Below are positions 1,592 to 13,387 of a stretch of DNA of 13,387 bases, piece after piece. The translations under genes were made by a program, and so were the position numbers. The notes beneath the pieces are model-generated. The model made no database searches. It had not been told where the DNA came from and saw only the letters and a list, made by a program, of their open reading frames with translations. Positions within the stretch are counted from its first letter, which is position 1; each line of letters begins with the position of its first letter. The stretch comes from a virus, in IMG/VR virus record IMGVR_UViG_3300045988_085209, positions 1 to 13,387 of that record; one strand, given 5' to 3'.

Positions 1592-3589
1592 GTGATCATT
1601 AGGGCAGATGATTTTGACCATGAATATATGAAGCTAACCGGCCTGCGGCGCATGCAAAAGAAGCATCGGGGGAATCCTGGGACACGAGCAAGGCGCAGAT
1701 ATCGCGATGAGGTAACGGCTTTTGATATTGAAACCTCCACGATTCCGGGAACACAGCAAGCGGTCATGTATATCTGGCAATGGCAGATCGGGGATTTCAC
1801 TGTTATTGGCCGCACTTGGGAAGAATTCCAGGATCTTTGTTACCGGCTCAAAGCGCAGTGCAAAGAGGATCAGTATATTGTGGTGTATGTGCATAACCTA
1901 TCCTTTGAATTTCAGTTTTTGGCAGGCATCTATGAATTTCAGCCGGAAGAAGTATTCTGCATCGAAAGCCGGAAGATCCTCAAATGTGACATGTTCGGCT
2001 GTCTGGAATTCCGCTGCTCCTACCTGCACAGTAACATGTCATTGGATGAATTCACACGCAAAATGGGAGTGGAGCACGCAAAGCTGCACGATTTCGACTA
2101 CAATCAATTCAGAGGGCCTTGGACAGCTCTAACAGATGATGAACTGCAATACTGCATAAACGATGTGCAGGGCCTTGTAGAGGCCCTTAAAATCGAAATG
2201 AAGCATGACGGAGATAATTTGTATTCCATCCCTCTGACCTCCACCGGCTATGTGCGCAGGGACGCGAGAGCAGTTCTAAAGGGCGTGAAGCATTTCATAG
2301 TGCAGGATATCCTGCCGGATTATGAAGTGTTTGAGATGCTCCAGGAAGCATTCCGCGGGGGAAACACCCATGCAAACAGATATTATGCAGGGCTGATCCT
2401 GGAGAATGTGAAAAGCGCGGATCGCTCCAGCAGTTACCCAGATGTACAGGTAAATTGCAAATATCCCATGTCGCGCTGGTTTCGTTCCGGAAACATCACA
2501 ACAGACCAATTATTTGACCTCATAGACCGCAGAGGGCGCGCAGTGGTAATGCGTGTTGCTTTATTCAATGTGCGCTTACACGATGAATTTTGGGGGTCTC
2601 CGTACCTTTCTATAAGCAAGTGCCGGAATATCAAGAATCACGAGCCGGACAATGGACGCATCCTATCTGCTGACTACTTGGAAACTACCATTACAGATAT
2701 TGATTTGAAGATCATCACTGACGAATACGATTTCGACAGCATGACCATTATCGACAGCGCGCACAGCAGATACGGCTATCTGCCGCGGAAATTTGTGGAG
2801 CTGGTCAACAAGTATTATCGGCTGAAAACAGAGCTGAAAGGCTCCGAGGATCTCTTTGACCAGCTGCTATACATGAAAAGCAAAAACAAGCTCAATTCGT
2901 TGTATGGCATGAGTGCCCAAAACCCCATCAAACCGGAAACGCAATTCAAGCAGGGCGAATTCAGCATCTTAGAGGAGGACTACAAAGAGAAGCTAGAAGC
3001 GCAAAACAAAAAAGCATTCTTTAACTATGCCTGGGGGGTGTGGTGTACGGCCTGGGCACGGCTGCGGCTGGAAGAGGGAATCCGGCTGGCCGGAAGCCGC
3101 TTTGTTTACGCTGATACGGATAGCGTGAAATATCTTGGCGAAATAGATTGGAGCGAATATAACGCCATCCGGGAAGCGCAGAGCAAAGCCCATGGGGCCT
3201 ATGCCATCGACAAAAAGGGAAAGGCCCATTACATGGGTGTCTTTGAGTATGAGGGCGAATATGCGAAATTCTCCACGCTGGGAGCCAAAAAATACTGCTG
3301 TGAGGACGCGGAGGGCAATTTGCAGATAACCATTGCCGGAGTGGGTAAAAAGGCCGGTGCGACCGAATTACGCCGGGCTGGCGGCATTTCCAGATTCAAG
3401 CCGGGATTTATCTTCCGGGAGGGTGGCGGATTAGATGCCGTTTATAACGATGATCCGGAGATAAAGGAAGTAACGATAGACGGCCACAGGCTGGAGATCA
3501 CCCGCAATGTGTGTCTTGTGCAGGGCGAATACACGCTGGGCCTTGCAGGGGATTATGAACGGCTATTGGATAGACTTGCGATAGAGTAA
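1592..3589 (+). CDS. Protein-primed family-B DNA polymerase (phi29 gp2-like), 665 aa
   Basis: Exo I is FDIETST, Exo II is HNLSFEF and Exo III is YCINDVQGL. Motif A is DRSSSYP (Dx2SLYP type), motif B is KNKLNSLYG (Kx3NSxYG), followed by TAWAR. Motif C is YADTDS and KxY is KKY. The start is GTG 1592 with SD GGAGG (1579-1583) 8 nt upstream. The next in-frame ATG (1628) has no SD. Confidence 0.97.
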   Translation: MIIRADDFDHEYMKLTGLRRMQKKHRGNPGTRARRRYRDEVTAFDIETSTIPGTQQAVMYIWQWQIGDFTVIGRTWEEFQDLCYRLKAQCKEDQYIVVYVHNLSFEFQFLAGIYEFQPEEVFCIESRKILKCDMFGCLEFRCSYLHSNMSLDEFTRKMGVEHAKLHDFDYNQFRGPWTALTDDELQYCINDVQGLVEALKIEMKHDGDNLYSIPLTSTGYVRRDARAVLKGVKHFIVQDILPDYEVFEMLQEAFRGGNTHANRYYAGLILENVKSADRSSSYPDVQVNCKYPMSRWFRSGNITTDQLFDLIDRRGRAVVMRVALFNVRLHDEFWGSPYLSISKCRNIKNHEPDNGRILSADYLETTITDIDLKIITDEYDFDSMTIIDSAHSRYGYLPRKFVELVNKYYRLKTELKGSEDLFDQLLYMKSKNKLNSLYGMSAQNPIKPETQFKQGEFSILEEDYKEKLEAQNKKAFFNYAWGVWCTAWARLRLEEGIRLAGSRFVYADTDSVKYLGEIDWSEYNAIREAQSKAHGAYAIDKKGKAHYMGVFEYEGEYAKFSTLGAKKYCCEDAEGNLQITIAGVGKKAGATELRRAGGISRFKPGFIFREGGGLDAVYNDDPEIKEVTIDGHRLEITRNVCLVQGEYTLGLAGDYERLLDRLAIE

Positions 3590-3590
3590 A

Positions 3591-3620
3591 ATAAGCCCTC
3601 CCCGAATGGGGAGGGCTTAT
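3591..3620. terminator. Bidirectional rho-independent terminator at the convergence point of the two arms
   Basis: A perfect 13-bp stem joins ATAAGCCCTCCCC and GGGGAGGGCTTAT around the 4-nt loop GAAT. The GC-rich core is followed by TTATTTT-type runs on both strands. It sits between the polymerase stop (3587-3589) and the stop of the - strand gene (3622-3624). Confidence 0.85.
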
Positions 3621-3621
3621 T

Positions 3622-4032
3622 TTAGGTAAACGAAATATCGTTAAACCGAATATAGGATTTTGAATACAGTCTTACCGTTGCATTATCAATTTGCGCTTTT
3701 GCCGGTATATCAAGATTAAATATGTCCGATGGGTTGACAGTGTTTTTTCCTACCGAATAGAGCTGATTCCCAGAACTATCATAGATGTAAAAATAAAATT
3801 CTGCTGCCGAAGAACCAATCTTGGTTTCATCCAATTTCGCTTTAGTTCGGCCTTTTAACGGAACCCCCTGAAATTCACATTGTGAAAATGAGTACATTAC
3901 AAGCCCGTCAGCAGCTAAGTTGACAGTTCCGCTTATTTTAACATATTTATAATCCGTTTTGGCGTTCGCAAAAAGATGTATTTCTTTTGGAGCAGCTTTT
4001 CCCATATACATATACGCAGTATTAACGATCAT
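3622..4032 (-). CDS. Hypothetical beta-rich protein, 136 aa; possible carbohydrate-binding or receptor-binding accessory module
   Basis: SD GAGGAGG lies 7 nt upstream of ATG 4032. This is the last gene of the late operon, directly after a fibre gene. G+C is much lower than in its neighbours. The alternating hydrophobic pattern and the C-terminal YIRFNDISFT resemble beta-sandwich CBM-type modules, but this is a weak by-eye impression only. Confidence 0.7.
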   Translation of the reverse strand: MIVNTAYMYMGKAAPKEIHLFANAKTDYKYVKISGTVNLAADGLVMYSFSQCEFQGVPLKGRTKAKLDETKIGSSAAEFYFYIYDSSGNQLYSVGKNTVNPSDIFNLDIPAKAQIDNATVRLYSKSYIRFNDISFT

Positions 4033-5007: not shown

Positions 5008-5592
5008 TTAGTTGGGATAGAAGATCTGATAGCCATTAACCACAATGTCGGTGCAGGTGGCCTTATAGCCCACAACGGTGGTAACGGTGCGCTGTGCATT
5101 CCCGATCTGTGCCACACTGATTGCGCCGGTGAGATGGAACGCGGACAGATAATCGAACATCTCCTGCACTGTCACATACTTGCCGGTAAACAGGTTCAGC
5201 ACCTTTAGATCAATCAGACCCTTGGAGATTTCCTCCATCAGAAATTCATTATTCTGTGCGATCTGCGCATTGGTGTAACCTCTCGCGGCCACCAAATTCG
5301 CGTCAATTTCCGCATCCTGCTGTTTCAGCTGCTCCTGGAATCCAGACAGTGCGCCATTGACCACATTTTGAAAATCTCGAATCGCGGTTTCAACAGATTG
5401 TTTCAGTTCCAGATTAGCTTGGTTGGAGCGTTCCGCTTCGGCTGCGACCTTTTCATCCGTATAGGTTTTGGCCGCGTCCAGAACTTCAGTGCTCCACTTG
5501 TCCACCGCTTCCGAAACCCTCTTGACCTCTTTTAACACCCAGTCAAGGTTGAGATCATGGAAATTGGTATAGGGGAACTGTTCAAATGCCAT
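5008..5592 (-). CDS. Putative tail fibre/appendage protein with central coiled coil, 194 aa
   Basis: SD GGAGGTG lies 5 nt upstream of ATG 5592. The N-terminal FPYTNFHDLNLDWVLKEV motif recurs at the N-termini of Firmicutes prophage fibre proteins (from memory). Residues ~25-110 are heptad-like and helical. The position corresponds to phi29 gene 12. Confidence 0.55.
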   Translation of the reverse strand: MAFEQFPYTNFHDLNLDWVLKEVKRVSEAVDKWSTEVLDAAKTYTDEKVAAEAERSNQANLELKQSVETAIRDFQNVVNGALSGFQEQLKQQDAEIDANLVAARGYTNAQIAQNNEFLMEEISKGLIDLKVLNLFTGKYVTVQEMFDYLSAFHLTGAISVAQIGNAQRTVTTVVGYKATCTDIVVNGYQIFYPN

Positions 5593-5605: not shown

Positions 5606-6166
5606 TCAATAAACTAACAGGCAAAATCTTTCTTTGAATTCGCCTATGATCTCGTACACGGTCGAATATTTCCGGCTTTCGCGTTCGCTCTCCAGCATCT
5701 GCTGGGTGGTGGTCACGCCGATATTACCGGAGATCCTCGCGGTGTGTCTGCTCTGCGAGGTTGTGGCAGTTCCGGTTCCTGCGGTCTGAACTGTGCGTTC
5801 CCGGTCAGCCATATCCGCTTCATTGAATCCCGCAACGGAAAGGTCGGTGATGTTGCTTCCGGAATTTTTTACGCTTCCTGCGCCATCATCCACCCAATCT
5901 TCCTGCCGGTCGTAGTTGTGAATCGGATTGTATTCCACCGTTTCCGTGTCCAGCATCTTCGACCAGGCATTTACACGCACATTCGACCATCGGCCCAGAA
6001 GCTGTTTTATGATATCCGGATTGGGTGTCAGTAGTTCCAATTCGGCAGTGTCAAACAGGAGCATTTCAATAAAATCGTCCCTATCAATGCCTGCAGGCAG
6101 CTTGAGATCGTCCAGAATATCCTCGCGGAAACTATACAGCCCCAGCAGGCTCAATGTTGCCATCAT
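5606..6166 (-). CDS. Putative lower collar / head-tail adaptor, 186 aa
   Basis: The ORF-track entry 5606..6232 is trimmed to ATG 6166 (Met23), which has GGGAGGTG 6 nt upstream. It lies directly downstream of the portal gene, as phi29 gene 11 follows gene 10. The function is assigned by synteny only. Confidence 0.45.
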   Translation of the reverse strand: MMATLSLLGLYSFREDILDDLKLPAGIDRDDFIEMLLFDTAELELLTPNPDIIKQLLGRWSNVRVNAWSKMLDTETVEYNPIHNYDRQEDWVDDGAGSVKNSGSNITDLSVAGFNEADMADRERTVQTAGTGTATTSQSRHTARISGNIGVTTTQQMLESERESRKYSTVYEIIGEFKERFCLLVY

Positions 6167-7061
6167 CGGAAGCACCTCCCATCTCCGGAATTTCGCGCCA
6201 GCGAACAGACATCGATATGCCGAACATGTCATTAACCCTCTTGCAGGCGTCTTGCAGATTTTCCAGCCACATAGCGCATTTGGAATAGGTTTCGATATTG
6301 TTCGCGTTTACCTCGTCCTGGATAAGCCGCTCGCGTTTGTCGGTGTTTGCATTGGGGATGCCGATCTCGGTATCGAACATAGATTCAATCTTCCGAAGAT
6401 CCGCCAGCAGGTTGGTAACGATATAATTGCCGCCTACATTCTGCTCGAAGGATTTCCAGGTTTCCTCCCCATCGGCAGCGTTTTTAAGCCGGGAATCAAT
6501 GACAACGGCAGGCTCTCCGCTGGCGATCTGGTCGTACATCTTCTTGAGAGATTCCGCCAGGGCCTTTGTTTTTGCAGTAAACACATAGGATAGCTTACTA
6601 TTCAGAAGATTGACGGAAACGGATTGGCTCGCCAGCGCCATCTGCTCTGCATAGTGGCCCACAAGATCCAGAATGCCGGAGAAGTCTGGCTGGAGCTTCA
6701 GCAGCTCGCATTGGGCTCCGATACGCGGCTCCAGAATGCCGGTCAGCAAGGGATTTGCTATCACTGCATTAGTGGGGGCATAGAACACATCATAGCCCTT
6801 TAGGCCGCATCCCTGCGGGATCACACCGAATTTATCGGTATTGATAACCGCAACATATCCCCAGCAGTACAGCACATACAGAAAATAGTCCTTGTTCCAG
6901 GTCTCCGGCAGATCCCATTCAAACACGCTCATGGCCTTTTGAAGCAGATACTTTGTGAAATACCTGCACAGGCCGCTATCCTTTACATGAACGGTGGAGG
7001 GTGTGACCTGGGAAGTTTCTGCGTTGATGTAGTTGTAATAATAGGGCGCACCGTTAATCAA
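6132..7061 (-). CDS. Portal / upper collar connector (phi29 gp10-like), 309 aa
   Basis: The length equals phi29 gp10 (309 aa). Matching segments are FEWDLPE vs FEWENLP, IGIPNANTDKRERLIQDEVNANNIETYS vs [28 protein letters not shown], and VNDMFGISMSVRWR vs INELYGLNVKVKFR. The start is TTG 7061 with SD GGAGG (7075..7071) 9 nt upstream. No in-frame ATG occurs before residue 44. Confidence 0.9.
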   Translation of the reverse strand: MINGAPYYYNYINAETSQVTPSTVHVKDSGLCRYFTKYLLQKAMSVFEWDLPETWNKDYFLYVLYCWGYVAVINTDKFGVIPQGCGLKGYDVFYAPTNAVIANPLLTGILEPRIGAQCELLKLQPDFSGILDLVGHYAEQMALASQSVSVNLLNSKLSYVFTAKTKALAESLKKMYDQIASGEPAVVIDSRLKNAADGEETWKSFEQNVGGNYIVTNLLADLRKIESMFDTEIGIPNANTDKRERLIQDEVNANNIETYSKCAMWLENLQDACKRVNDMFGISMSVRWREIPEMGGASDDGNIEPAGAV

Positions 7062-8461: not shown

Positions 8462-9673
8462 TTAGTCAAGCAGCAGTACAACTGCCTTTTCGGTCAGGTC
8501 AGACCAGCTGCGCTGCGTCTCGTGGATCCACATGGTGGTATAACCGCCGCGGGCATTGAAAGGCGCAGGATTGGCCCACTGCTGCATGGTGGTGTATCCG
8601 AGAGCTTCCTCATCAAAGATGATGCCGAAGATTCCGGCCTGCTCCACAGCGGTATCAGGAGTAACCAGAGCGCCATCAGTGCCGATGTAGACCGGCTTCA
8701 CGCTGATGCTGTCGGGGGTTTCAATGCTCTGCCAGAAGTTTACCGTTTCATTATCCGCAAAGCGCAGGAAGTTATCGTGGTAGGTGTCCGCGATGGCCAT
8801 GGTCTCGGTCTGGAATCTTGCGGGCGCATAGAGATAGACTTTCTGACGATCCAGCGGAGTGTGGCGCAGAATATGCATTTCATTTACCACGGTCTGGAAC
8901 ATCTCGCTGCGCTCGGTCATCATGGCCGAAATGGAAGAAATCCGCGCGAACACCCACTGCATGAACGGTTTGAAATTCGCAGGCTGATAGACGCTTTGGG
9001 CAGTGAGATCGGCAAGACCGGTAAGGGTCTTATACTCGGTCAGCAGATGCACAACGCGGCCCTCCTGGGCCTCCTTGCAGATTGCCCCGATGTGGTTTGC
9101 AATGGTTGCGCGGGCGATGTTTTCACGCACCTGCTCCAGCTTGTCGGTGACATTCTGCGTTACCATTGTAATGAAGCGGCTGAACTCGTCCGGAGTAGTA
9201 AACGCGCAATCCAGCTGATCCTTATAGATGGTGTAATAGTCCTGATAGACATTTGCGCCATAGAAATTGGTTTCGAGGATCTTAGGCTTACGCTGGATCT
9301 GCTGATCAACAGCCAGACCGTCACCGTTAGGAGGGGTCTTGCCTGTGGTATATGCGACCGGGTACTGATAACGGTCGTCATTTACCAAATCGCTGTCAGC
9401 GATGGACAGCTTGCGAACGCGATTGCCATAGGTGATCTGATCCACCATGATGCCGTTAAATTTCCGGCGATAAGGACGGACAGAAAAAATGGTGCGGGAA
9501 AGTACCTGGGAAATGGCTTTCATCAGAGGATCATAGCCAGTTTTAAGCGCGGTCTGTGCGGAAGTGATAAAGCTCGCGCTATCTACAGCTGCGATAGTAG
9601 ATTTCCCGGTAGCCTGGCTCTGAATCTCGTTCAGAATCGCCGATGCCTGGGTAAAAGTAAGATCATTGGCCAT
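8462..9673 (-). CDS. Major capsid protein (phi29 gp8-like, HK97 fold expected), 403 aa
   Basis: SD AAGGAGG lies upstream, and a TAATG overlap links it to the scaffold gene. The C-terminal NARGGYTTMWIHETQRSWSDLTEKAVVL parallels phi29 gp8 [28 protein letters not shown]. Size and position after the scaffold fit a capsid protein. Complete avoidance of TTA/CTA/TCA codons suggests high expression. Confidence 0.85.
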   Translation of the reverse strand: MANDLTFTQASAILNEIQSQATGKSTIAAVDSASFITSAQTALKTGYDPLMKAISQVLSRTIFSVRPYRRKFNGIMVDQITYGNRVRKLSIADSDLVNDDRYQYPVAYTTGKTPPNGDGLAVDQQIQRKPKILETNFYGANVYQDYYTIYKDQLDCAFTTPDEFSRFITMVTQNVTDKLEQVRENIARATIANHIGAICKEAQEGRVVHLLTEYKTLTGLADLTAQSVYQPANFKPFMQWVFARISSISAMMTERSEMFQTVVNEMHILRHTPLDRQKVYLYAPARFQTETMAIADTYHDNFLRFADNETVNFWQSIETPDSISVKPVYIGTDGALVTPDTAVEQAGIFGIIFDEEALGYTTMQQWANPAPFNARGGYTTMWIHETQRSWSDLTEKAVVLLLD

Positions 9674-10029: not shown

Positions 10030-10732
10030 TGATTTTGCCCTCCTTAATAATTACCGGATAGCCAATGGCGGACAGCTCATCGGCCATCTTCTGCGCGTTT
10101 TCTTTGGAGCGGAAAGCGCCAACCTGGACGCGATAAATAACATCGGTCTTTTCGGCCAGCTTTTCCGCTACTCTTGATCTGAATTTGTCCATGTTTTCCC
10201 CGAAACCAAAGAAATAGGATTCCGGATCCCCATGGTTTGAAGCATACCCTGCCGCAGCCGCTTCCTTGTGGGAGGTGATCTTGTCTACCGAAAACCCATA
10301 CTTGCGGCAAAGATCCGCGACCAGCTCAACCAGATAAGCATACCCGGTATGGAAATACTGTGCGTCCGTCATATCGCTCTCGCAGAATTCAATCTGAATA
10401 TATGCCGTAGGTGGATAATTGTAGGATCCTTTCTTTCCGGCTCCGCAGCCCCAACAGGCAATATTAAGCGGCAGAACTTCGCAAGTGGCCATGTGTCCTG
10501 CTTTATCCAGGCCAACAAAAAGATGTGGGCTTTTCTTAATTCCGGGTTGGTTCCAATGATTCCCGTACTTGTTTTCACCCAGGATATCCGGAGCGTCTAC
10601 ATAGCGCCGCAAATTGGGATTTGCTGCCCCAGTGCTATGTACCAAAATTCCGACAGGGTTAATGGGAATCTGATTTGCAGGAATGCTTAGTATTTCGTGC
10701 TTGATGTGGTGAGTGATATAGTAGTTTATCAT
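10019..10732 (-). CDS. Endolysin: N-acetylmuramoyl-L-alanine amidase domain with a C-terminal SPOR domain, 237 aa
   Basis: An ATGA overlap links it to the holin gene. The N-terminal part has amidase-type motifs (ILVHSTGAANP, ITSHKEAAAAGYASNHGDPE). The C-terminal IYRVQVGAFRSKENAQKMADELSAIGYPVIIKEG is a textbook SPOR motif (YRVQVGAF...A..L...G). Confidence 0.8.
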   Translation of the reverse strand: MINYYITHHIKHEILSIPANQIPINPVGILVHSTGAANPNLRRYVDAPDILGENKYGNHWNQPGIKKSPHLFVGLDKAGHMATCEVLPLNIACWGCGAGKKGSYNYPPTAYIQIEFCESDMTDAQYFHTGYAYLVELVADLCRKYGFSVDKITSHKEAAAAGYASNHGDPESYFFGFGENMDKFRSRVAEKLAEKTDVIYRVQVGAFRSKENAQKMADELSAIGYPVIIKEGKINEL

Positions 10733-10917
10733 TTCGGTTCCATCCTCTCCACCAGCTTCGTCATAACAACAGTATTGTTGTTAATGGCCTCTACGAATTT
10801 TTCAGATTCCAGCTTGTGATCTTCACGCTCTTTGTTAAGCATCCAGAACATGGCCACCAGACACGCAACAGGAACTCCCAGATTGCTGACGATCTGAACG
10901 ATTGCGGTTACATCCAT
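10729..10917 (-). CDS. Holin, BhlA/UviB-like, 62 aa
   Basis: SD AAGGAGG lies 8 nt upstream of ATG 10917. It has a single N-terminal TM segment (IVQIVSNLGVPVACLVAMFWML) followed by KEREDHKLESEKF and a charged helical tail, like B. subtilis BhlA (...FCWLLFYVMKTSKERESKLYNQ...). It lies immediately upstream of the endolysin. Confidence 0.8.
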   Translation of the reverse strand: MDVTAIVQIVSNLGVPVACLVAMFWMLNKEREDHKLESEKFVEAINNNTVVMTKLVERMEPK

Positions 10918-10940
10918 GAATACACCTCCTTAAATTAAGA

Positions 10941-11017
10941 ATAGAGACCCCATTCAGTCCGCTGCACGGCGGAATGGGCAGGCTTCCGGCCTTGTGCATA
11001 GCCCTTGGGGTCTCTAT
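10941..11017 (-). ncRNA. Structured ~77-nt RNA element (three-way junction) followed by a U-rich tract; leader, terminator or small RNA
   Basis: P1 is a 12-bp stem (10941-10952 with 11006-11017). Hairpin A pairs 10976-10983 with 10989-10992 plus 11001-11004 (8 bp), with a 5-nt loop and an 8-nt bulge (10993-11000). Hairpin B pairs 10959-10962 with 10969-10972 and has flanking pairs 10953/54 with 10974/73. The hairpin B loop TGCAC (10963-10967) is complementary to the bulge GTGCA (10994-10998). On the - strand the element is followed by UCUUAAUUU and then the holin SD. Confidence 0.55.
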
Positions 11018-11021
11018 GTTC

Positions 11022-11049
11022 ATTATAGCGCGATTATTTTCTTTGTCAA
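11022..11049 (-). promoter_or_regulatory. Exact-consensus sigma-A/sigma-70 promoter embedded in the 3' end of the ATPase gene
   Basis: On the - strand, TTGACA is at 11049..11044 and TATAAT at 11027..11022, with a 16-nt spacer. The TATAAT contains the ATPase stop codon TAA (11025..11023). The expected start, about 7 nt downstream, falls at the first bases of stem P1 (~11017-11014). Confidence 0.65.
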
Positions 11050-12039
11050 GTATTCTTTGACAAGATAATCCTCGCAGTATAATTCCCCACTTAGATACTT
11101 CCGCAGGATCCAGCCATATTTAAGGCGAAAGCGCTTAATATCAATATCGTCTCCGGTGTAGGTTTCCGGACTACCGGATGTGTGAAATGTGGCGTACAAT
11201 GTGCCATCGCTCTTGTGAGAATAAATACAAACTTCGCCAACTTTCACAATAGAAATATACTCCCGGAGCGGCTTGGATTGAATGTGCGCTGCATCATCCT
11301 CGCGGAAAGCATTATTTAACGCCATCTCATTAAAGCGGCTATCCTTTGCTGTAGCCTTGTAAAGCGCCGTATTTGCTTTCTGTGCACTTATGTGGCTGTC
11401 ACTTAGAATGTATATCCCAATACCGCGATCACGAAGCAGAGACATATTCTTTCCGGTCTGCTGCATCCTCATGGCCCTGCTGACAAGGCCCAATTCCATA
11501 AAGATAGGATTCCCCAGGTCGTTGGCATTTGCCAGGCACAGCGTTTGGATCGGCCTTTGGCCCTGCAATTCGCGGTTACGGTTCATTGTCTCATAAGCGT
11601 TCAGGAACGCGGCTCCCTCGTTCTTGATAGGCCGCTCATGCCGTTCCGGTATGAATTCATCAAAAATCCACAGCTGCACATCTGATGCGTCAAAGCCGCG
11701 CAGATTCGACATTGTGGAAAGGGCCGAAGCATAGCCAATTGGATCGCCGCTATCATCCGCGTAAAAGCCGGTATTATACTTGGTTATCTTCGCAGCGGTA
11801 ATATCTACACCCAGATCCCGGTTAATAGGCTTGAATGGGCTGAACTCATTCTTTGTGACAATATCTATCTGCGCCTGGGTGCGGCGCGTCAGCATGAACT
11901 TGATGTTATCCTCGACCACAACTTTCAGTGCCCCATAGGTCTTACCAGTTCCGCGTCCGCCCACCAGGAAGTTGAACGGCAGGCCCTGTGCAAGAATCCA
12001 TCGAATATCTACATAGCCGTTGGGCAAATATAAGCCCAT
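11023..12039 (-). CDS. DNA packaging (encapsidation) ATPase, phi29 gp16-like, 338 aa
   Basis: Walker A FNFLVGGRGTGKTYG matches phi29 gp16 LNFVIGARGIGKSY. Walker B LWIFDEFIPE matches TIVFDEFI. CLANAND matches CLSNA. The size is similar (phi29 gp16 is 332 aa). SD AGGAGGTG lies upstream of ATG 12039. Confidence 0.9.
   Translation of the reverse strand: MGLYLPNGYVDIRWILAQGLPFNFLVGGRGTGKTYGALKVVVEDNIKFMLTRRTQAQIDIVTKNEFSPFKPINRDLGVDITAAKITKYNTGFYADDSGDPIGYASALSTMSNLRGFDASDVQLWIFDEFIPERHERPIKNEGAAFLNAYETMNRNRELQGQRPIQTLCLANANDLGNPIFMELGLVSRAMRMQQTGKNMSLLRDRGIGIYILSDSHISAQKANTALYKATAKDSRFNEMALNNAFREDDAAHIQSKPLREYISIVKVGEVCIYSHKSDGTLYATFHTSGSPETYTGDDIDIKRFRLKYGWILRKYLSGELYCEDYLVKEYLTKKIIAL
11043..11063. 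promoter_or_regulatory. Operator-like palindrome overlapping the -35 box
   Basis: TTGTCAA (11043-11049) and TTGACAA (11057-11063) are exact 7-bp inverted repeats separated by 7 nt. One half-site contains the -35 hexamer. I found no other copy in the window. Confidence 0.4.
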
Positions 12040-12059
12040 TAAAACACCTCCTAAAGAGA

Positions 12060-12079
12060 TGGGAGCCGTTAGGCTCCCA
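12060..12079 (-). terminator. Possible intrinsic attenuator/terminator hairpin between the SSB-like and ATPase genes
   Basis: An 8-bp GC-rich stem (TGGGAGCC / GGCTCCCA) closes the tetraloop GTTA. On the - strand it is followed by UCUCUUU, a weak U-tract that runs straight into the ATPase SD. Confidence 0.35.
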
Positions 12080-12086
12080 ATGTAAA

Positions 12087-12483: not shown

Positions 12484-12615
12484 TTAGGCCGGAAGGGCCT
12501 TATTGGCTTCATCGTACAGGCCCAGCAGATGAATATATAACCGGGCCTTGTCATAGTCTGCGGCCTTGAGGGCCTCGCAGATTTGATATTGAATGCGCCT
12601 GCGTTCTTTAGTCAT
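12484..12615 (-). CDS. Hypothetical small helical protein, 43 aa (not in the ORF track)
   Basis: An ATGA overlap links it to the upstream gene stop, and SD GGAGG lies 7 nt upstream. Product: MTKERRRIQYQICEALKAADYDKARLYIHLLGLYDEANKALPA. Stop TAA is at 12486..12484. Confidence 0.5.
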   Translation of the reverse strand: MTKERRRIQYQICEALKAADYDKARLYIHLLGLYDEANKALPA

Positions 12616-12941
12616 GTTTCTACCTCCTGCATCCAAAATTCGCGACAACAATCTACACACTTTATTACGGGTTCTTTACAGTCGCCATCACCGTCTCTGT
12701 GTGCGGCAGAAATATACCTCGGACAAAGCCGCAGCACCCCGGAATCATCAACAAGTGACTCCGGATAGTGCTCCATAAACACGCTTTGCCGCGTCTTGCG
12801 CGGGTGCGCAGCAGCCCAGTCCTCGACTTCTTTTACCACATTCTCCGCGCTAACAGTCATGCTGAATAAATTATACTTTGGGTATTTCCCTGTAACATCA
12901 AACATTCGTCTGCGCTCCTCGACAAACTTTACAGCATCCAT
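12612..12941 (-). CDS. Hypothetical Cys-rich (possibly zinc-binding) early protein, 109 aa
   Basis: The ORF-track entry starts at TTG 12944. I prefer ATG 12941, which overlaps the upstream stop as TGATG and has GAGGAGG (12955..12949) upstream. The C-terminal part carries the Cys cluster CPRYISAAHRDGDGDCKEPVIKCVDCCREFW. Confidence 0.7.
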   Translation of the reverse strand: MDAVKFVEERRRMFDVTGKYPKYNLFSMTVSAENVVKEVEDWAAAHPRKTRQSVFMEHYPESLVDDSGVLRLCPRYISAAHRDGDGDCKEPVIKCVDCCREFWMQEVET

Positions 12942-13108
12942 CAATCCACCTCCTCGATCATTCCAGATAGGATGATTGCATCATCGTTCAGCTCGAAGAA
13001 CATCTTAGAAAGCTGTGCGGGCATCTCCCGGCCGTCATTAAGAGTTTGGATCAGATCTCTGGTGCTGCGGATCGCTGCGCGGATTACTTTAAGTTCAGTG
13101 TTACTCAT
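12941..13108 (-). CDS. Hypothetical small acidic helical early protein, 55 aa (not in the ORF track)
   Basis: This is the first gene of the right arm. ATG 13108 lies 6 nt after the ITR-borne SD. Product: MSNTELKVIRAAIRSTRDLIQTLNDGREMPAQLSKMFFELNDDAIILSGMIEEVD. Stop TGA is at 12943..12941. Confidence 0.6.
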   Translation of the reverse strand: MSNTELKVIRAAIRSTRDLIQTLNDGREMPAQLSKMFFELNDDAIILSGMIEEVD

Positions 13109-13110
13109 AT

Positions 13111-13387
13111 TTACCCTCCTGCCCCTGGGGCTGTAATTGGTTAGGCTTTCGCCTGGAACATCTTTATTATAATATTATGTATGGCTGTTGTAAAATACTT
13201 CTTTCGTTATATGCTTATAGCAGGTTTGCTATATATCAAATTTGTTATATGCTCATAGCTCCTGCGCTATATGCAGGTCTGTGATCTGGGCCGGACATAA
13301 GTAAGTTGGTTGACCAACCAATTTACCAAATGTTAGGTGTAAAGTATGTAAAGGGGAAAACCTTTACACATTTGCCTTATTAGGTAG
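13111..13387. repeat. Right inverted terminal repeat (277 bp)
   Basis: Perfect reverse complement of 1-277. Left position x corresponds to 13388-x. Confidence 0.98.
13166..13194 (-). promoter_or_regulatory. Inward-facing promoter in the right ITR (identical copy)
   Basis: Mirror image of 194-222. On the - strand, TTTACA is at 13194..13189 and TATAAT at 13171..13166. It drives the - strand operon that starts at ATG 13108. Confidence 0.7.

Follow-up and report, generated by a model that had tools for sequence, protein, structure and literature searches.

In reviews and surveys from 2016, 2024 and 2025, the prohead RNA (pRNA) of the DNA-packaging motor is known only from phi29 and related Bacillus/Cytobacillus phages (PMC5066667, PMC11476376, PMC12670572). 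The E loop of phi29 pRNA touches loops of the capsid protein and the N-terminal helix of the ATPase touches pRNA, and by cryo-EM there is little contact between pRNA and the portal (PMC8104870). Another short phage RNA, putL of HK022 (~70 nt), is located just downstream of PL (PMC9378689).

The window analysed here (the whole 13,387-nt stretch of DNA, IMG/VR record IMGVR_UViG_3300045988_085209) represents a 13.4-kb phi29-like gut phage whose MCP, connector, ATPase and PolB are all of the phi29 type. Its proteins match PF05894, PF05352 and PF25622 (gp16 ATPase, gp10 connector and phi29-type capsid set), and BLASTP links them to phi29 gp16 and gp10, the ATPase having 28% identity to gp16. The gene for this gp16-type DNA-encapsidation ATPase (11023-12039, - strand; PF05894, E = 7e-15; phrog_2150) and the gene for a 62-aa holin-like protein (10729-10917, - strand) flank a gap of 105 nt (10918-11022), which the initial annotation had singled out as the only large intergenic gap outside the ITRs. 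The ORF table bears this out: the gap is the largest non-ITR gap of the window and the others do not exceed 47 nt (47 nt at 12040-12086, 32 nt at 3590-3621). Beyond it lie the holin, endolysin and structural genes, and its position is the switch point between early and late genes. The gap very probably (with a probability of roughly 0.85) encodes a small structured RNA that acts as an RNA in its own right. The most likely job of this RNA, proposed tentatively and by analogy, is to serve the DNA-packaging motor as an adaptor, as a miniature counterpart of the prohead RNA of phi29.

Fold and covariation of the RNA

On the - strand, to which all features below belong, the sequence at 10941-11017 (~77 nt) folds into a 12-bp closing helix that encloses two hairpins, forming a three-way junction. 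The 5' strand of this helix A, AUAGAGACCCCA (11006-11017), pairs with its 3' strand, UGGGGUCUCUAU (10941-10952). The C/E arm has the order GGGC-UAUGCACA-AGGC-CGGAA-GCCU-GCCC, in which helix C is formed by GGGC (11001-11004) and GCCC (10976-10979), the 8-nt bulge UAUGCACA (10993-11000) lies on the 5' side, and hairpin E (AGGC-CGGAA-GCCU, 10980-10992) is capped by the conserved pentaloop CGGAA (10984-10988). The other arm is hairpin D (CCGC-CGUGCA-GCGG, 10959-10972), and ACUGAA (10953-10958) forms the D-to-A junction, which in the alignments is 4-6 nt long and A-rich among relatives. Five bases of the bulge, UGCAC (10994-10998), pair with GUGCA of the D loop (10963-10967), so that the 53-nt interior within helix A contains a pseudoknot as well as covarying helices. 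Both the closing stem with its two hairpins and the 5-bp complementarity of loop and bulge had been described correctly in the initial annotation; comparative data now back the three-way junction, and the loop/bulge pairing covaries among relatives.

Folding energy by itself is weak evidence for the structure, and covariation is decisive. The folding energy has a z-score of -2.3 on the - strand, with 4 of 200 shuffles as stable. The nested consensus structure has an energy of -35.4 kcal/mol versus -36.7 kcal/mol for the MFE structure, which turns both strands of the pseudoknot into a nested helix; with the pseudoknot duplex (-5.2 kcal/mol) added, the comparative fold is the most stable.

When 61 distinct sequences were aligned, 85% of cells were paired versus 55% in shuffles, and the covariation score was 0.745 versus 0.193 in shuffles, none of 500 shuffles reaching the observed value; slid registers of the same set scored 0.2 or less. 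An independent set gave 89% paired versus 54% and a covariation score of 0.807 versus 0.193. Strong covariation is seen in each of the four helices, in two independent alignments, and in the bulge/loop pairing. The initial annotation would have counted stems that neither covary nor are conserved in relatives against function, and in both sets the stems are conserved and covary. In helix A all 8 of the modelled pairs covary, the length ranges from 8 to 17 bp with perfect pairing and no conserved bulges, and paired insertions of 1 nt (L003) and 2 nt (L002) occur. Helix C has 4 bp in nearly all members and is 98-99% paired, while helix E, in which many double changes occur, is 99% paired and has the loop C(G/A)(G/A)AA in most members.

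The bulge is 7-9 nt long and its 3' part forms 4-6 Watson-Crick pairs with the D loop. By a register-free test of complementarity, at least four contiguous Watson-Crick pairs between bulge and D loop are possible in 53 of 61 and 31 of 39 sequences, versus 11-18% in controls, and 24 pair types occur in each of the two sets. The closest divergent relative (L105, 86% identical to the window) has AACACA/UGUGUU, which amounts to two double compensatory changes; the notion that the pseudoknot evolves faster than the helices holds for the window versus this relative but not generally. A single-stranded segment is the bulge partner in the L092 variant, and the D loop of phage AD70P2 and of L091 is a GNRA-type GGGA. 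Unpaired adenines are conserved in the bulge and the junctions, and G-U pairs are tolerated only on the RNA strand (-). As judged from these patterns of substitution, the gap contains a real RNA, read from the - strand.

Promoter, distribution and genomic settings

The best-scoring sigma-70 promoter of the window (TTGACA-16 nt-TATAAT, 12/12 consensus) directly precedes the RNA: its -35 hexamer TTGACA (11044-11049) lies within the 3' end of the ATPase gene and its -10 hexamer TATAAT (11022-11027) overlaps the ATPase stop codon (11023-11025). Transcription is predicted to start around A11015 (11014-11017), 6-8 nt past the -10 hexamer and at the first bases of helix A. The earlier suggestion of a promoter that starts transcription at the 5' strand of the closing stem is thus borne out, and the discrete RNA of ~80 nt that it made plausible is, as a predicted transcript, backed by comparative data. 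A promoter matching at least 9/12 is sited 3-10 nt ahead of helix A in 73 of 80 distinct relatives; of the 41 loci in the independent set, 28 have one ending 2-11 nt ahead of the helix.

On the 3' side, helix A is followed by UCUUAAUUU (10932-10940), a tail only moderately U-rich (5 T in the first 8 nt) that in this clade may form a partial terminator with helix A, and by the Shine-Dalgarno sequence AAGGAGG (10925-10931) of the holin-like gene, whose ATG (10915-10917) stands 23 nt after the helix. The U-rich tract recognized in the initial annotation is therefore present in the window but not conserved in the family, in which the 8 nt after helix A contain 0-7 T and many members have no U-run. 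Roughly one quarter of lineages possess a U-run or an explicit terminator 3' of the RNA, terminators being located there in L061-66, L108, L143, L155, L168, L175 and L176; in L031 and L071 a terminator lies ahead of the promoter. The distance from the RNA to the next start codon is 16-57 nt, and because most lineages have no terminator in this interval, a processing step has to be assumed.

The RNA is conserved in well over 100 related phage genomes. Its covariance model, which detects exactly one copy per genome, matches 81 of the 84 sequences of the first round and 41 of the 64 independent MAG contigs, and confirmed 54 of 70 matches to a context-blind pattern. All 54 confirmed matches are on contigs no longer than 14.4 kb with a gene for a gp16-type ATPase, which none of the remaining 16 chance matches has on its contig. 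A divergent version is present in the cultured Amedibacillus phage AD70P2 (OP172638), where the candidate spans 6404-6475 on the - strand. No copy was found in relatives that lack the gap (MT836125 and Acinetobacter phage Phanie). A hand-written structural descriptor for divergent copies in gap-less relatives was too permissive, giving several equal-scoring false matches per genome.

Adjacency to the packaging ATPase gene, as stated in the initial annotation, is found in most genomes (51 of the 54 context-blind matches have the RNA directly after this gene) but not in the L095 clade, where the RNA heads the late operon, 8.4 kb from the gene for the ATPase. In the L168/L175/L176 clade, promoter, RNA and a strong terminator form a unit followed by convergent genes, with no same-strand gene after it, and the structure is preserved through compensatory changes. 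A tRNA-Ile gene begins 4 nt past the RNA in L142. Going by these arrangements and by the terminators that follow it elsewhere, the RNA is independent of any downstream gene.

No match on the RNA strand was returned when the whole window was compared with Rfam 15 at E values up to 10, nor when a 181-nt region and six relatives were searched, riboswitch and ribozyme families included. A match to a terminator-only motif, which the initial annotation had allowed for, was likewise absent from the scans of the window, the 181-nt region and the six relatives. Sub-threshold Rfam matches to Thr_leader in the window are merely a terminator at 3587-3624. The literature searched contains no description of such an RNA.

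Candidate functions

Three readings had been offered in the initial annotation, and the first of them, an analogue of pRNA, survives as the leading single hypothesis: the layout matches, but the arms are short and the Rfam pRNA model has no match. The variable length of helix A, the processing step that most lineages would need and the lack of a copy in gap-less relatives also speak against it. If phi29 is a guide, the prohead vertex would be the docking site of the conserved E loop and helix A would present its paired 5' and 3' ends to the gp16-type ATPase, with the bulge/D-loop pairing either locking the fold or linking neighbouring copies. Release of the RNA in the window might occur by partial termination at helix A and UCUUAAUUU or by cleavage in the AU-rich linker, and read-through from its promoter would yield the mRNA for holin, endolysin and structural proteins. 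Strong conservation marks the first 25 residues of the ATPase family. The window's connector is without the basic N-terminus of its phi29 counterpart, which is a weak counter-argument because pRNA barely contacts the portal in cryo-EM. A ring of five or six members would have an inner diameter of ~48-62 A by our own length-based estimate, too small for the 66-A connector stalk, which argues against a 5-6-mer ring.

A more specific version, in which the phi29-like phages of gut and rumen (12-15 kb, mostly uncultured) use a ~70-nt miniature pRNA whose copies pair bulge to D loop and assemble on the portal vertex, is possible but doubtful; it would extend RNA-dependent packaging beyond Bacillus phages. 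If true, the RNA stoichiometry of the packaging vertex may be unlike that of phi29, and an ancestral RNA component of the phi29-type packaging motor would be indicated. The same segment layout in a different and very large phi29-like branch is a concrete candidate for testing whether an RNA-dependent motor is ancestral, and its divergent version in cultured phage AD70P2 makes a bench test feasible. At ~70 nt, the RNA would further offer RNA nanotechnology, which now relies on the phi29 three-way junction, a compact scaffold of natural origin. If packaging is not its role, it is nonetheless a new small phage RNA, widespread, pseudoknotted and with no match in Rfam 15.

A fairly unlikely alternative is a compact protein-binding RNA with another function in trans, in which the pseudoknot would be intramolecular and the CGGAA loop and junction adenines would bind a conserved host or phage protein, whether as a decoy or sponge or as a boxB-like target of a small early protein rich in arginine. 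Aptamer-like folds typically show conserved unpaired adenines, arms of fixed length and a conserved pentaloop, as this RNA does, and the single-stranded bulge partner of L092 and the GGGA loops of AD70P2 and L091 also favour such an RNA. The window encodes an early ORF of 43 aa that begins MTKERRRIQ, but the small early proteins have no family matches and are not conserved outside the window clade, and this ORF was rejected as an N-like arginine-rich partner on the same grounds, the early proteins having no PHROG matches. CsrA, which depends on GGA, is an unlikely partner because the loops CAGAA and CGAAA also occur.

A riboregulator acting through hairpin E, in cis or in trans, is unlikely, yet it accounts for a feature that a packaging RNA would not need. 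In about one third of lineages, a covarying 6-7-nt complement of the 5' strand and loop of hairpin E is located just upstream of the Shine-Dalgarno sequence of the next gene. The folded core would then be a stable scaffold for hairpin E, whose 5' strand and loop (e.g. AGCCGGA), on pairing just ahead of the Shine-Dalgarno sequence in the first late gene or elsewhere, would adjust translation or mRNA decay. Of 80 loci, 25 have a complement of 6 nt or more ~13-17 nt ahead of the ATG, versus 1.4% of shuffled flanks, and the two sides change together (AGCCGGA/UCCGGCU, GGCCGGA/UCCGGCC, CCCGGA/UCCGGG, CUCGGAA/UUCCGAG, UCCCGG/CCGGGA); it is also present in L089, L092, L108, L111, L114 and L128. The complement lies past a terminator in L061-66 and L108, so that pairing there would take place in trans or only in read-through RNA. 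However, neither the window clade nor many other clades have it, the E loop shows conservation instead of free covariation, and a base-pairing seed leaves the strict three-way junction, the pseudoknot and the fixed arm lengths unexplained. Two exact CUUCCGGC sites occur in - strand transcripts of the window, but these may be due to chance because CCGGAA is compositionally common there, being the most over-represented hexamer (37 occurrences versus 6.3 expected; a Markov model predicts 33.7). A DNA-level CCGGAA motif was rejected as the cause of E-loop conservation, given this Markov prediction and the absence of the enrichment from relatives.

A cis-acting gate of the late operon, which was the second reading of the initial annotation and included riboswitch-like control, is improbable and cannot be the conserved function because no same-strand gene follows the RNA in the L168/L175/L176 clade, where it is retained with compensatory changes; it may apply secondarily in the window. 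From a constitutive promoter, such a gate would produce a short leader that is terminated or read through into lysis and structural genes, similar to lambda PR'-6S-tR'/Q or HK022 putL, and pairing of the 5' end would also shield the mRNA from 5'-end-dependent decay. The gene order of most genomes (promoter, RNA, a Shine-Dalgarno sequence within 16-57 nt, then holin, endolysin and structural genes) would suit a gate, as would the U-runs and terminators of one quarter of lineages and the RNA of the L095 clade, which heads the late operon at a distance from the ATPase gene. Processing of the tRNA in L142 would, however, detach the RNA, and in the window the late operon has gaps of 19 nt or less and no evident internal terminators. 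A search of the early proteins identified no Q-, N- or p4-like protein and no PHROG match. A universal cis leader, 5' stabiliser or put-like antiterminator was ruled out by the stand-alone clade and the tRNA-linked copy.

The remaining reading of the initial annotation, merely an elaborate intrinsic terminator at the end of the right-hand early operon (ATPase gene), is highly improbable and, for the family, is rejected. The window does have a GC-rich helix of 12 bp ahead of UCUUAAUUU, with no further terminator between the ATPase gene and the late genes, but a U-run that lacks conservation shows that the RNA is no plain terminator; in addition, the interior covaries and contains a pseudoknot, separate terminators exist in some relatives, and the promoter is directly upstream, so that its own transcripts include the entire hairpin. 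The chance that the gap is coding is next to nil, as the ORF at 10835-11023 (62 aa), despite an ATG that overlaps the ATPase stop codon (TAATG) in the manner of coupled genes, overlaps the well-supported holin-like gene by 83 nt, shows substitutions that follow a paired-RNA pattern, and is shifted or truncated by the paired indels of helix A in relatives that are 97-99% identical (23 aa in L002, frame changed and then restored in L003 and L004), with no ATG in L006 and 29 aa in L105.

Comparison with known RNAs

Purine riboswitch aptamers and natural hammerheads consist of a closing helix with two side arms, a tertiary contact and conserved junction purines, and the new RNA has the same three-way plan with contact between the arms. 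It differs from riboswitch and ribozyme families in having no Rfam match and in suggesting neither a ligand nor a cleavage site; a hammerhead or twister-sister-like ribozyme was rejected on account of unsuitable junction lengths and the absence of an Rfam match. In the lambda PR'/6S/tR'/Q system, too, holin, endolysin and structural genes are directly preceded by a constitutive consensus promoter and a short leader, and some lineages of the new family share a terminator there as well. Unlike the 6S leader, the new RNA has a conserved tertiary fold, and unlike the lambda arrangement it has no Q-like protein among the early proteins searched, no terminator in many lineages and in one clade has no downstream genes. 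The put elements of HK022, which are cis-acting antiterminators that bind RNA polymerase, resemble it in being ~70 nt long, structured, promoter-proximal (putL) and at the head of a long operon. They are composed of two stem-loops and a triplex, whereas the new RNA is a closed three-way junction with a bulge/loop pseudoknot, and its stand-alone copies have nothing to antiterminate.

Between the new RNA and phi29 pRNA (RF00044, domain I) there is no detectable similarity of sequence or profile. The pRNA model RF00044 had no match on the - strand of the window at E values up to 10 (whole window and 181-nt search) and none at its gathering threshold in 6 relatives, phi29 pRNA itself scoring 145 bits, and the covariance model R1 of the new RNA had no match in phi29. 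The core of the new RNA is 65-80 nt long, versus 117 nt for pRNA; helix C has 4 bp instead of 9, helix D 4-5 instead of 6, and helix A is a perfect 8-17 bp instead of ~25 bp with conserved bulges needed for ATPase function. Of the junction linkers, the long one joins D to A in the new RNA and C to D in pRNA. The new RNA is usually found between the ATPase and late genes and usually lacks a terminator of its own, whereas pRNA has its own terminator and is found at the genome end. In pRNA the pairing of bulge and D loop is intermolecular and builds a ring on the prohead, to which pRNA is bound, and packaging is RNase-sensitive; in the new RNA that pairing may be either intra- or intermolecular.

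The two RNAs nevertheless share the segment order of the Rfam pRNA consensus (A5', C5', 5'-side bulge, E, loop, E3'/C3', linker, D, A3'), with E3' and C3' contiguous in both. In the consensus the 5'-side bulge is 9 nt, the E helix 4 bp and the loop small, and in the new RNA the bulge is 7-9 nt and the E helix 4 bp; the loop of hairpin D is ~5 nt in both. Each has a three-way junction, 5' and 3' ends paired in helix A, and its own strong promoter with +1 at helix A. Both occur in phages with a gp16-type ATPase, a gp10-type connector, a phi29-type capsid protein and a protein-primed PolB. In both, the 3' end of the bulge supplies the bases that pair with the D loop through 4-6 covarying Watson-Crick pairs, and one clade of the new family has the D loop UUGGUUG and the bulge AACCAA, resembling the GGUU/AACC of phi29.

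A probable small RNA gene in the largest intergenic gap

The gap at 10918-11022 of the window holds a feature that is real, far beyond chance, and that we read as encoding a small three-way-junction RNA with a pseudoknot (probability about 0.85). At 13,387 bp, the window is a complete linear genome that ends in perfect inverted terminal repeats of 277 bp (ITRs; 1-277 and 13111-13387). Its + strand codes for a protein-primed type-B DNA polymerase (polB; 1592-3589). Genes on the - strand specify an encapsidation ATPase of gp16 type (11023-12039), a holin-like protein of 62 aa (10729-10917), an amidase/SPOR endolysin, a major capsid protein of phi29 type (8462-9673) and a connector of gp10 type (6132-7061). 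In alignments with phi29 proteins, the ATPase shares 28% identity with gp16, and the connector 25% with gp10. The closest GenBank records are human-gut phage contigs without annotation; the Amedibacillus phages AD70P2 and AD70P3 are more remote.

All other non-ITR gaps are 47 nt or shorter. On the - strand, a closing stem of 12 bp, helix A (11017-11006 with 10952-10941), encloses hairpin C/E (GGGC, bulge UAUGCACA, AGGC, loop CGGAA, GCCU, GCCC) and hairpin D (CCGC, loop CGUGCA, GCGG), and UGCAC in the bulge is complementary to GUGCA in the D loop. The three top sigma-70-type promoters of the genome are one in each ITR, facing inward (11/12 matches; 194-222, + strand, and 13194-13166, - strand), and a perfect 12/12 match within the 3' end of the ATPase gene, aimed into the gap. 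The -10 hexamer of the latter ends at 11022, which puts +1 near A11015, within the first bases of helix A. The initial annotation's claims of the largest gap, a closing stem around two hairpins, a 5-bp loop/bulge complementarity and a promoter at the stem were thus borne out. Its proposed folding check gave z = -2.3 for the - strand, which taken alone is no more than suggestive; the comparative structure (-35.4 kcal/mol, versus -36.7 for the minimum free energy fold, in which both pseudoknot strands are part of a nested helix) becomes the most stable fold once the pseudoknot duplex (-5.2 kcal/mol) is included.

Other potential regulatory elements were observed in the genome. Upstream of each ITR promoter is an imperfect 32-nt palindrome (116-147 versus 154-185), which may serve replication or protein binding. 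An inverted repeat, TTGTCAA-N7-TTGACAA (11043-11063, - strand), overlaps the -35 element of the internal promoter and could be an operator; it lies within conserved coding sequence and is only partly retained in the related loci L105 and L006. The 47-nt gap ahead of the ATPase gene (12045-12086) contains a GC-rich hairpin, TGGGAGCC-TAAC-GGCTCCCA (12079-12060, - strand), followed by UCUCUUUAGGAGG, which may attenuate the ATPase gene or mask its ribosome-binding site. Where polB (+) meets the late operon (-), a perfect inverted repeat of 17 bp, flanked on both sides by A/T runs (3587-3624), is a bidirectional terminator, and accounts for sub-threshold Rfam matches to Thr_leader and other leaders. 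The variable early-gene slot (12487-12944) includes a Cys-rich 110-aa ORF (12612-12944) with no counterpart even among near-identical relatives; the adjacent ORF, probably of 43 aa with an ATGA-coupled start at 12615 and an arginine-rich N-terminus (MTKERRRIQ), is conserved in the window clade only.

Distribution and covariation among relatives

At E values up to 1e-10 the ATPase has 2,856 homologues, and conservation of the region following its gene can be seen down to 46% protein identity. Among 84 loci taken from IMG/VR using the ATPase, a covariance model (R1) matches 81 sequences, exactly once per genome and always on the ATPase strand. R1 also matches 41 of 64 MAG-binned contigs left out of model building. 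Two gut-phage records in GenBank, MT835998 and MT836263, are hit as well, and MT835901 and MT836115 have weaker variants. When 2.9 million viral contigs were screened for a 16-base pattern without regard to context, there were 70 matches: 54 are confirmed by R1, every one on an ATPase-encoding contig of at most 14.4 kb, and the ATPase gene is absent from all 16 others. The RNA is confined to phi29-like phages of 12-15 kb from gut and rumen, which form a very large family. By eye and unconstrained folding, the same layout is found in MT836155, MT836587, L107 and the cultured Amedibacillus phage AD70P2. AD70P2 (6404-6475) and MT836587 (5063-5126) have a GNRA-type D loop, GGGA, a bulge that includes AUCC, and deviating E loops (CGA, AGCC). 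In MT835901 (6020-6100) hairpin D is absent, and the bulge AAAAGGAA pairs with single-stranded UUCCUUUU.

Comparison of these sequences indicates that the RNA structure is under selection. Among 61 distinct sequences, 85% of cells are paired versus 55% in shuffles, and the covariation score of 0.745, reached by none of 500 shuffles, compares with 0.193 in these (slid registers score at most 0.2); an independent set gives 89% versus 54% and 0.807 versus 0.193. Pairing reaches 98-99% in helices C and E, with numerous double substitutions, and in genomes 97-99% identical to the window helix A has gained matching 1- and 2-nt insertions on both its strands. G-U pairs on the - strand would be A-C mismatches on the opposite strand, so the RNA is the window - strand. 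In a register-free test for at least four contiguous Watson-Crick pairs, the bulge pairs with the D loop in 53 of 61 and 31 of 39 sequences, versus 11-18% of cross-paired or shuffled controls. There are 24 pair types per set, such as UGCAC/GUGCA, AGUCA/UGACU, GCACA/UGUGC, AACCAA/UUGGUU and GAAACA/UGUUUC. In L105, the closest divergent relative of the window (ATPase 86% identical), the pairing is AACACA/UGUGUU, two double compensatory changes in an otherwise nearly identical RNA.

Genomic contexts and possible functions

The RNA has its own promoter, with a -10 element ending 3-10 nt ahead of helix A, at 73 of 80 loci, and at 28 of 41 in a second set (2-11 nt). Arm lengths are constant (C, 4 bp; bulge, 7-9 nt; E, 4 bp; D, 3-5 bp), and the E pentaloop is C(G/A)(G/A)AA in most lineages. 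For most genomes its place is between the ATPase gene and the first late gene, with the start codon of the latter at a distance of 16-57 nt. The L095 clade has its ATPase gene beside polB on the opposite strand, with the RNA 8.4 kb off at the head of the late operon; L179, L242 and L244 look alike in this respect. In L168, L175 and L176 the order is TP-Pol-ATPase, promoter, RNA, strong terminator and convergent late genes, so that promoter, RNA and terminator(s) form a stand-alone unit (792-918, 3237-3360 and 5374-5500, respectively) with no same-strand gene downstream. Compensatory changes in helices A, E and D and in the pseudoknot distinguish L168 from L176, which has an extra insert of ~15 nt in the bulge region. 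In L142 (5930-6073) a tRNA-Ile(UAU) gene, flanked by GTTAACTAGTCA copies, starts 4 nt after helix A, between the RNA and the holin-like gene. Promoter and RNA are all that is invariant across these contexts, and the conserved function must then belong to the RNA itself. The leading reading, at less than even odds, is a packaging cofactor like the phi29 packaging RNA (pRNA); a protein-binding RNA of another kind is less likely.

A riboregulator acting via hairpin E, somewhat less likely again, has its main support in a second pairing. In about one-third of lineages, a stretch of 6-7 nt directly upstream of the next gene's Shine-Dalgarno sequence is complementary to the 5' strand and loop of hairpin E (25 of 80 loci versus 1.4% of shuffled flanks) and covaries with helix E. 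Relatives that have it include L016 (1539-1570), L008, L033, L056 and L061, and further cases are L089, L092, L108, L111, L114 and L128. This complement is absent from the window clade, and in L061-66 and L108 it is located past a terminator. The pairing points to a further, regulatory use, either within the precursor before processing or in trans. In the window, exact 8-nt E-loop complements (CUUCCGGC) occur twice on the - strand (12495-12488 and 7112-7105), ~24 nt ahead of the ATG of a 125-aa gene and ~45 nt ahead of the connector start. The most over-represented hexamer of the window is CCGGAA/TTCCGG (37 occurrences versus 6.3 expected); under a Markov model the prediction is 33.7, and the enrichment does not extend to relatives.

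The 12/12 promoter would probably also feed the late genes of the window through read-through, but gating of late transcription in cis, one reading of the initial annotation, is improbable as the main role: L168, L175 and L176 keep the RNA without a same-strand gene downstream, and 5' processing of the L142 tRNA would detach it. A purely cis-acting late-operon leader was rejected because of these contexts. The U-rich tract reported after helix A is present in the window as UCUUAAUUU, but is not constant in relatives (0-7 T in 8 nt, with explicit terminators or long U-runs in L061-66, L108, L143 and L155), which rules out the earlier suggestion of a plain terminator as a credible reading; no Rfam model matches the RNA. 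The coding reading, a 62-aa ORF starting at the ATPase stop codon, has practically no probability, being destroyed by the paired helix A insertions of the genomes 97-99% identical to the window.

Comparison with phi29 packaging RNA

The Rfam pRNA consensus consists of the 5' strand of A, 1 nt, C (9 bp) with a 9-nt 5'-side bulge before E (4 bp, 6-nt loop), contiguous 3' strands of E and C, 3 nt, hairpin D (6 bp, 5-nt loop) and the 3' strand of A; in phi29, AACC/GGUU pairing links the 3' end of the bulge with the D loop. The gap RNA shares these parts and their order, and its pairing bases are likewise at the 3' end of the bulge. Unlike phi29 pRNA, it has far shorter helices C and D, a bulge-free helix A of variable length (8-17 bp) and a long junction linker at a different place, and it usually lacks its own terminator. 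The pRNA analogy drawn in the initial annotation stands for the parts, their order and the covarying bulge/D-loop pairing, but not for arm length or profile searches, in which neither RNA matches the other. The reviews and surveys consulted report pRNA from Bacillus- or Cytobacillus-infecting phages only, and no description of the gap RNA was found in the literature searched.

By our estimate, C, pseudoknot and D together span ~14 bp (39-43 A), so that a five- or six-copy ring would not be wide enough to surround a connector stalk of the phi29 type. If the gap RNA has a role in the motor, that would be as a monomeric adaptor or within another kind of assembly. The pRNA of phi29 docks on capsid-protein loops through its E loop, is bound by the N-terminal helix of the ATPase and barely touches the portal (PMC8104870). 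The non-basic N-terminus of the window connector therefore counts for little, and a role in capsid docking would predict an E loop that is conserved, as in the gap RNA.
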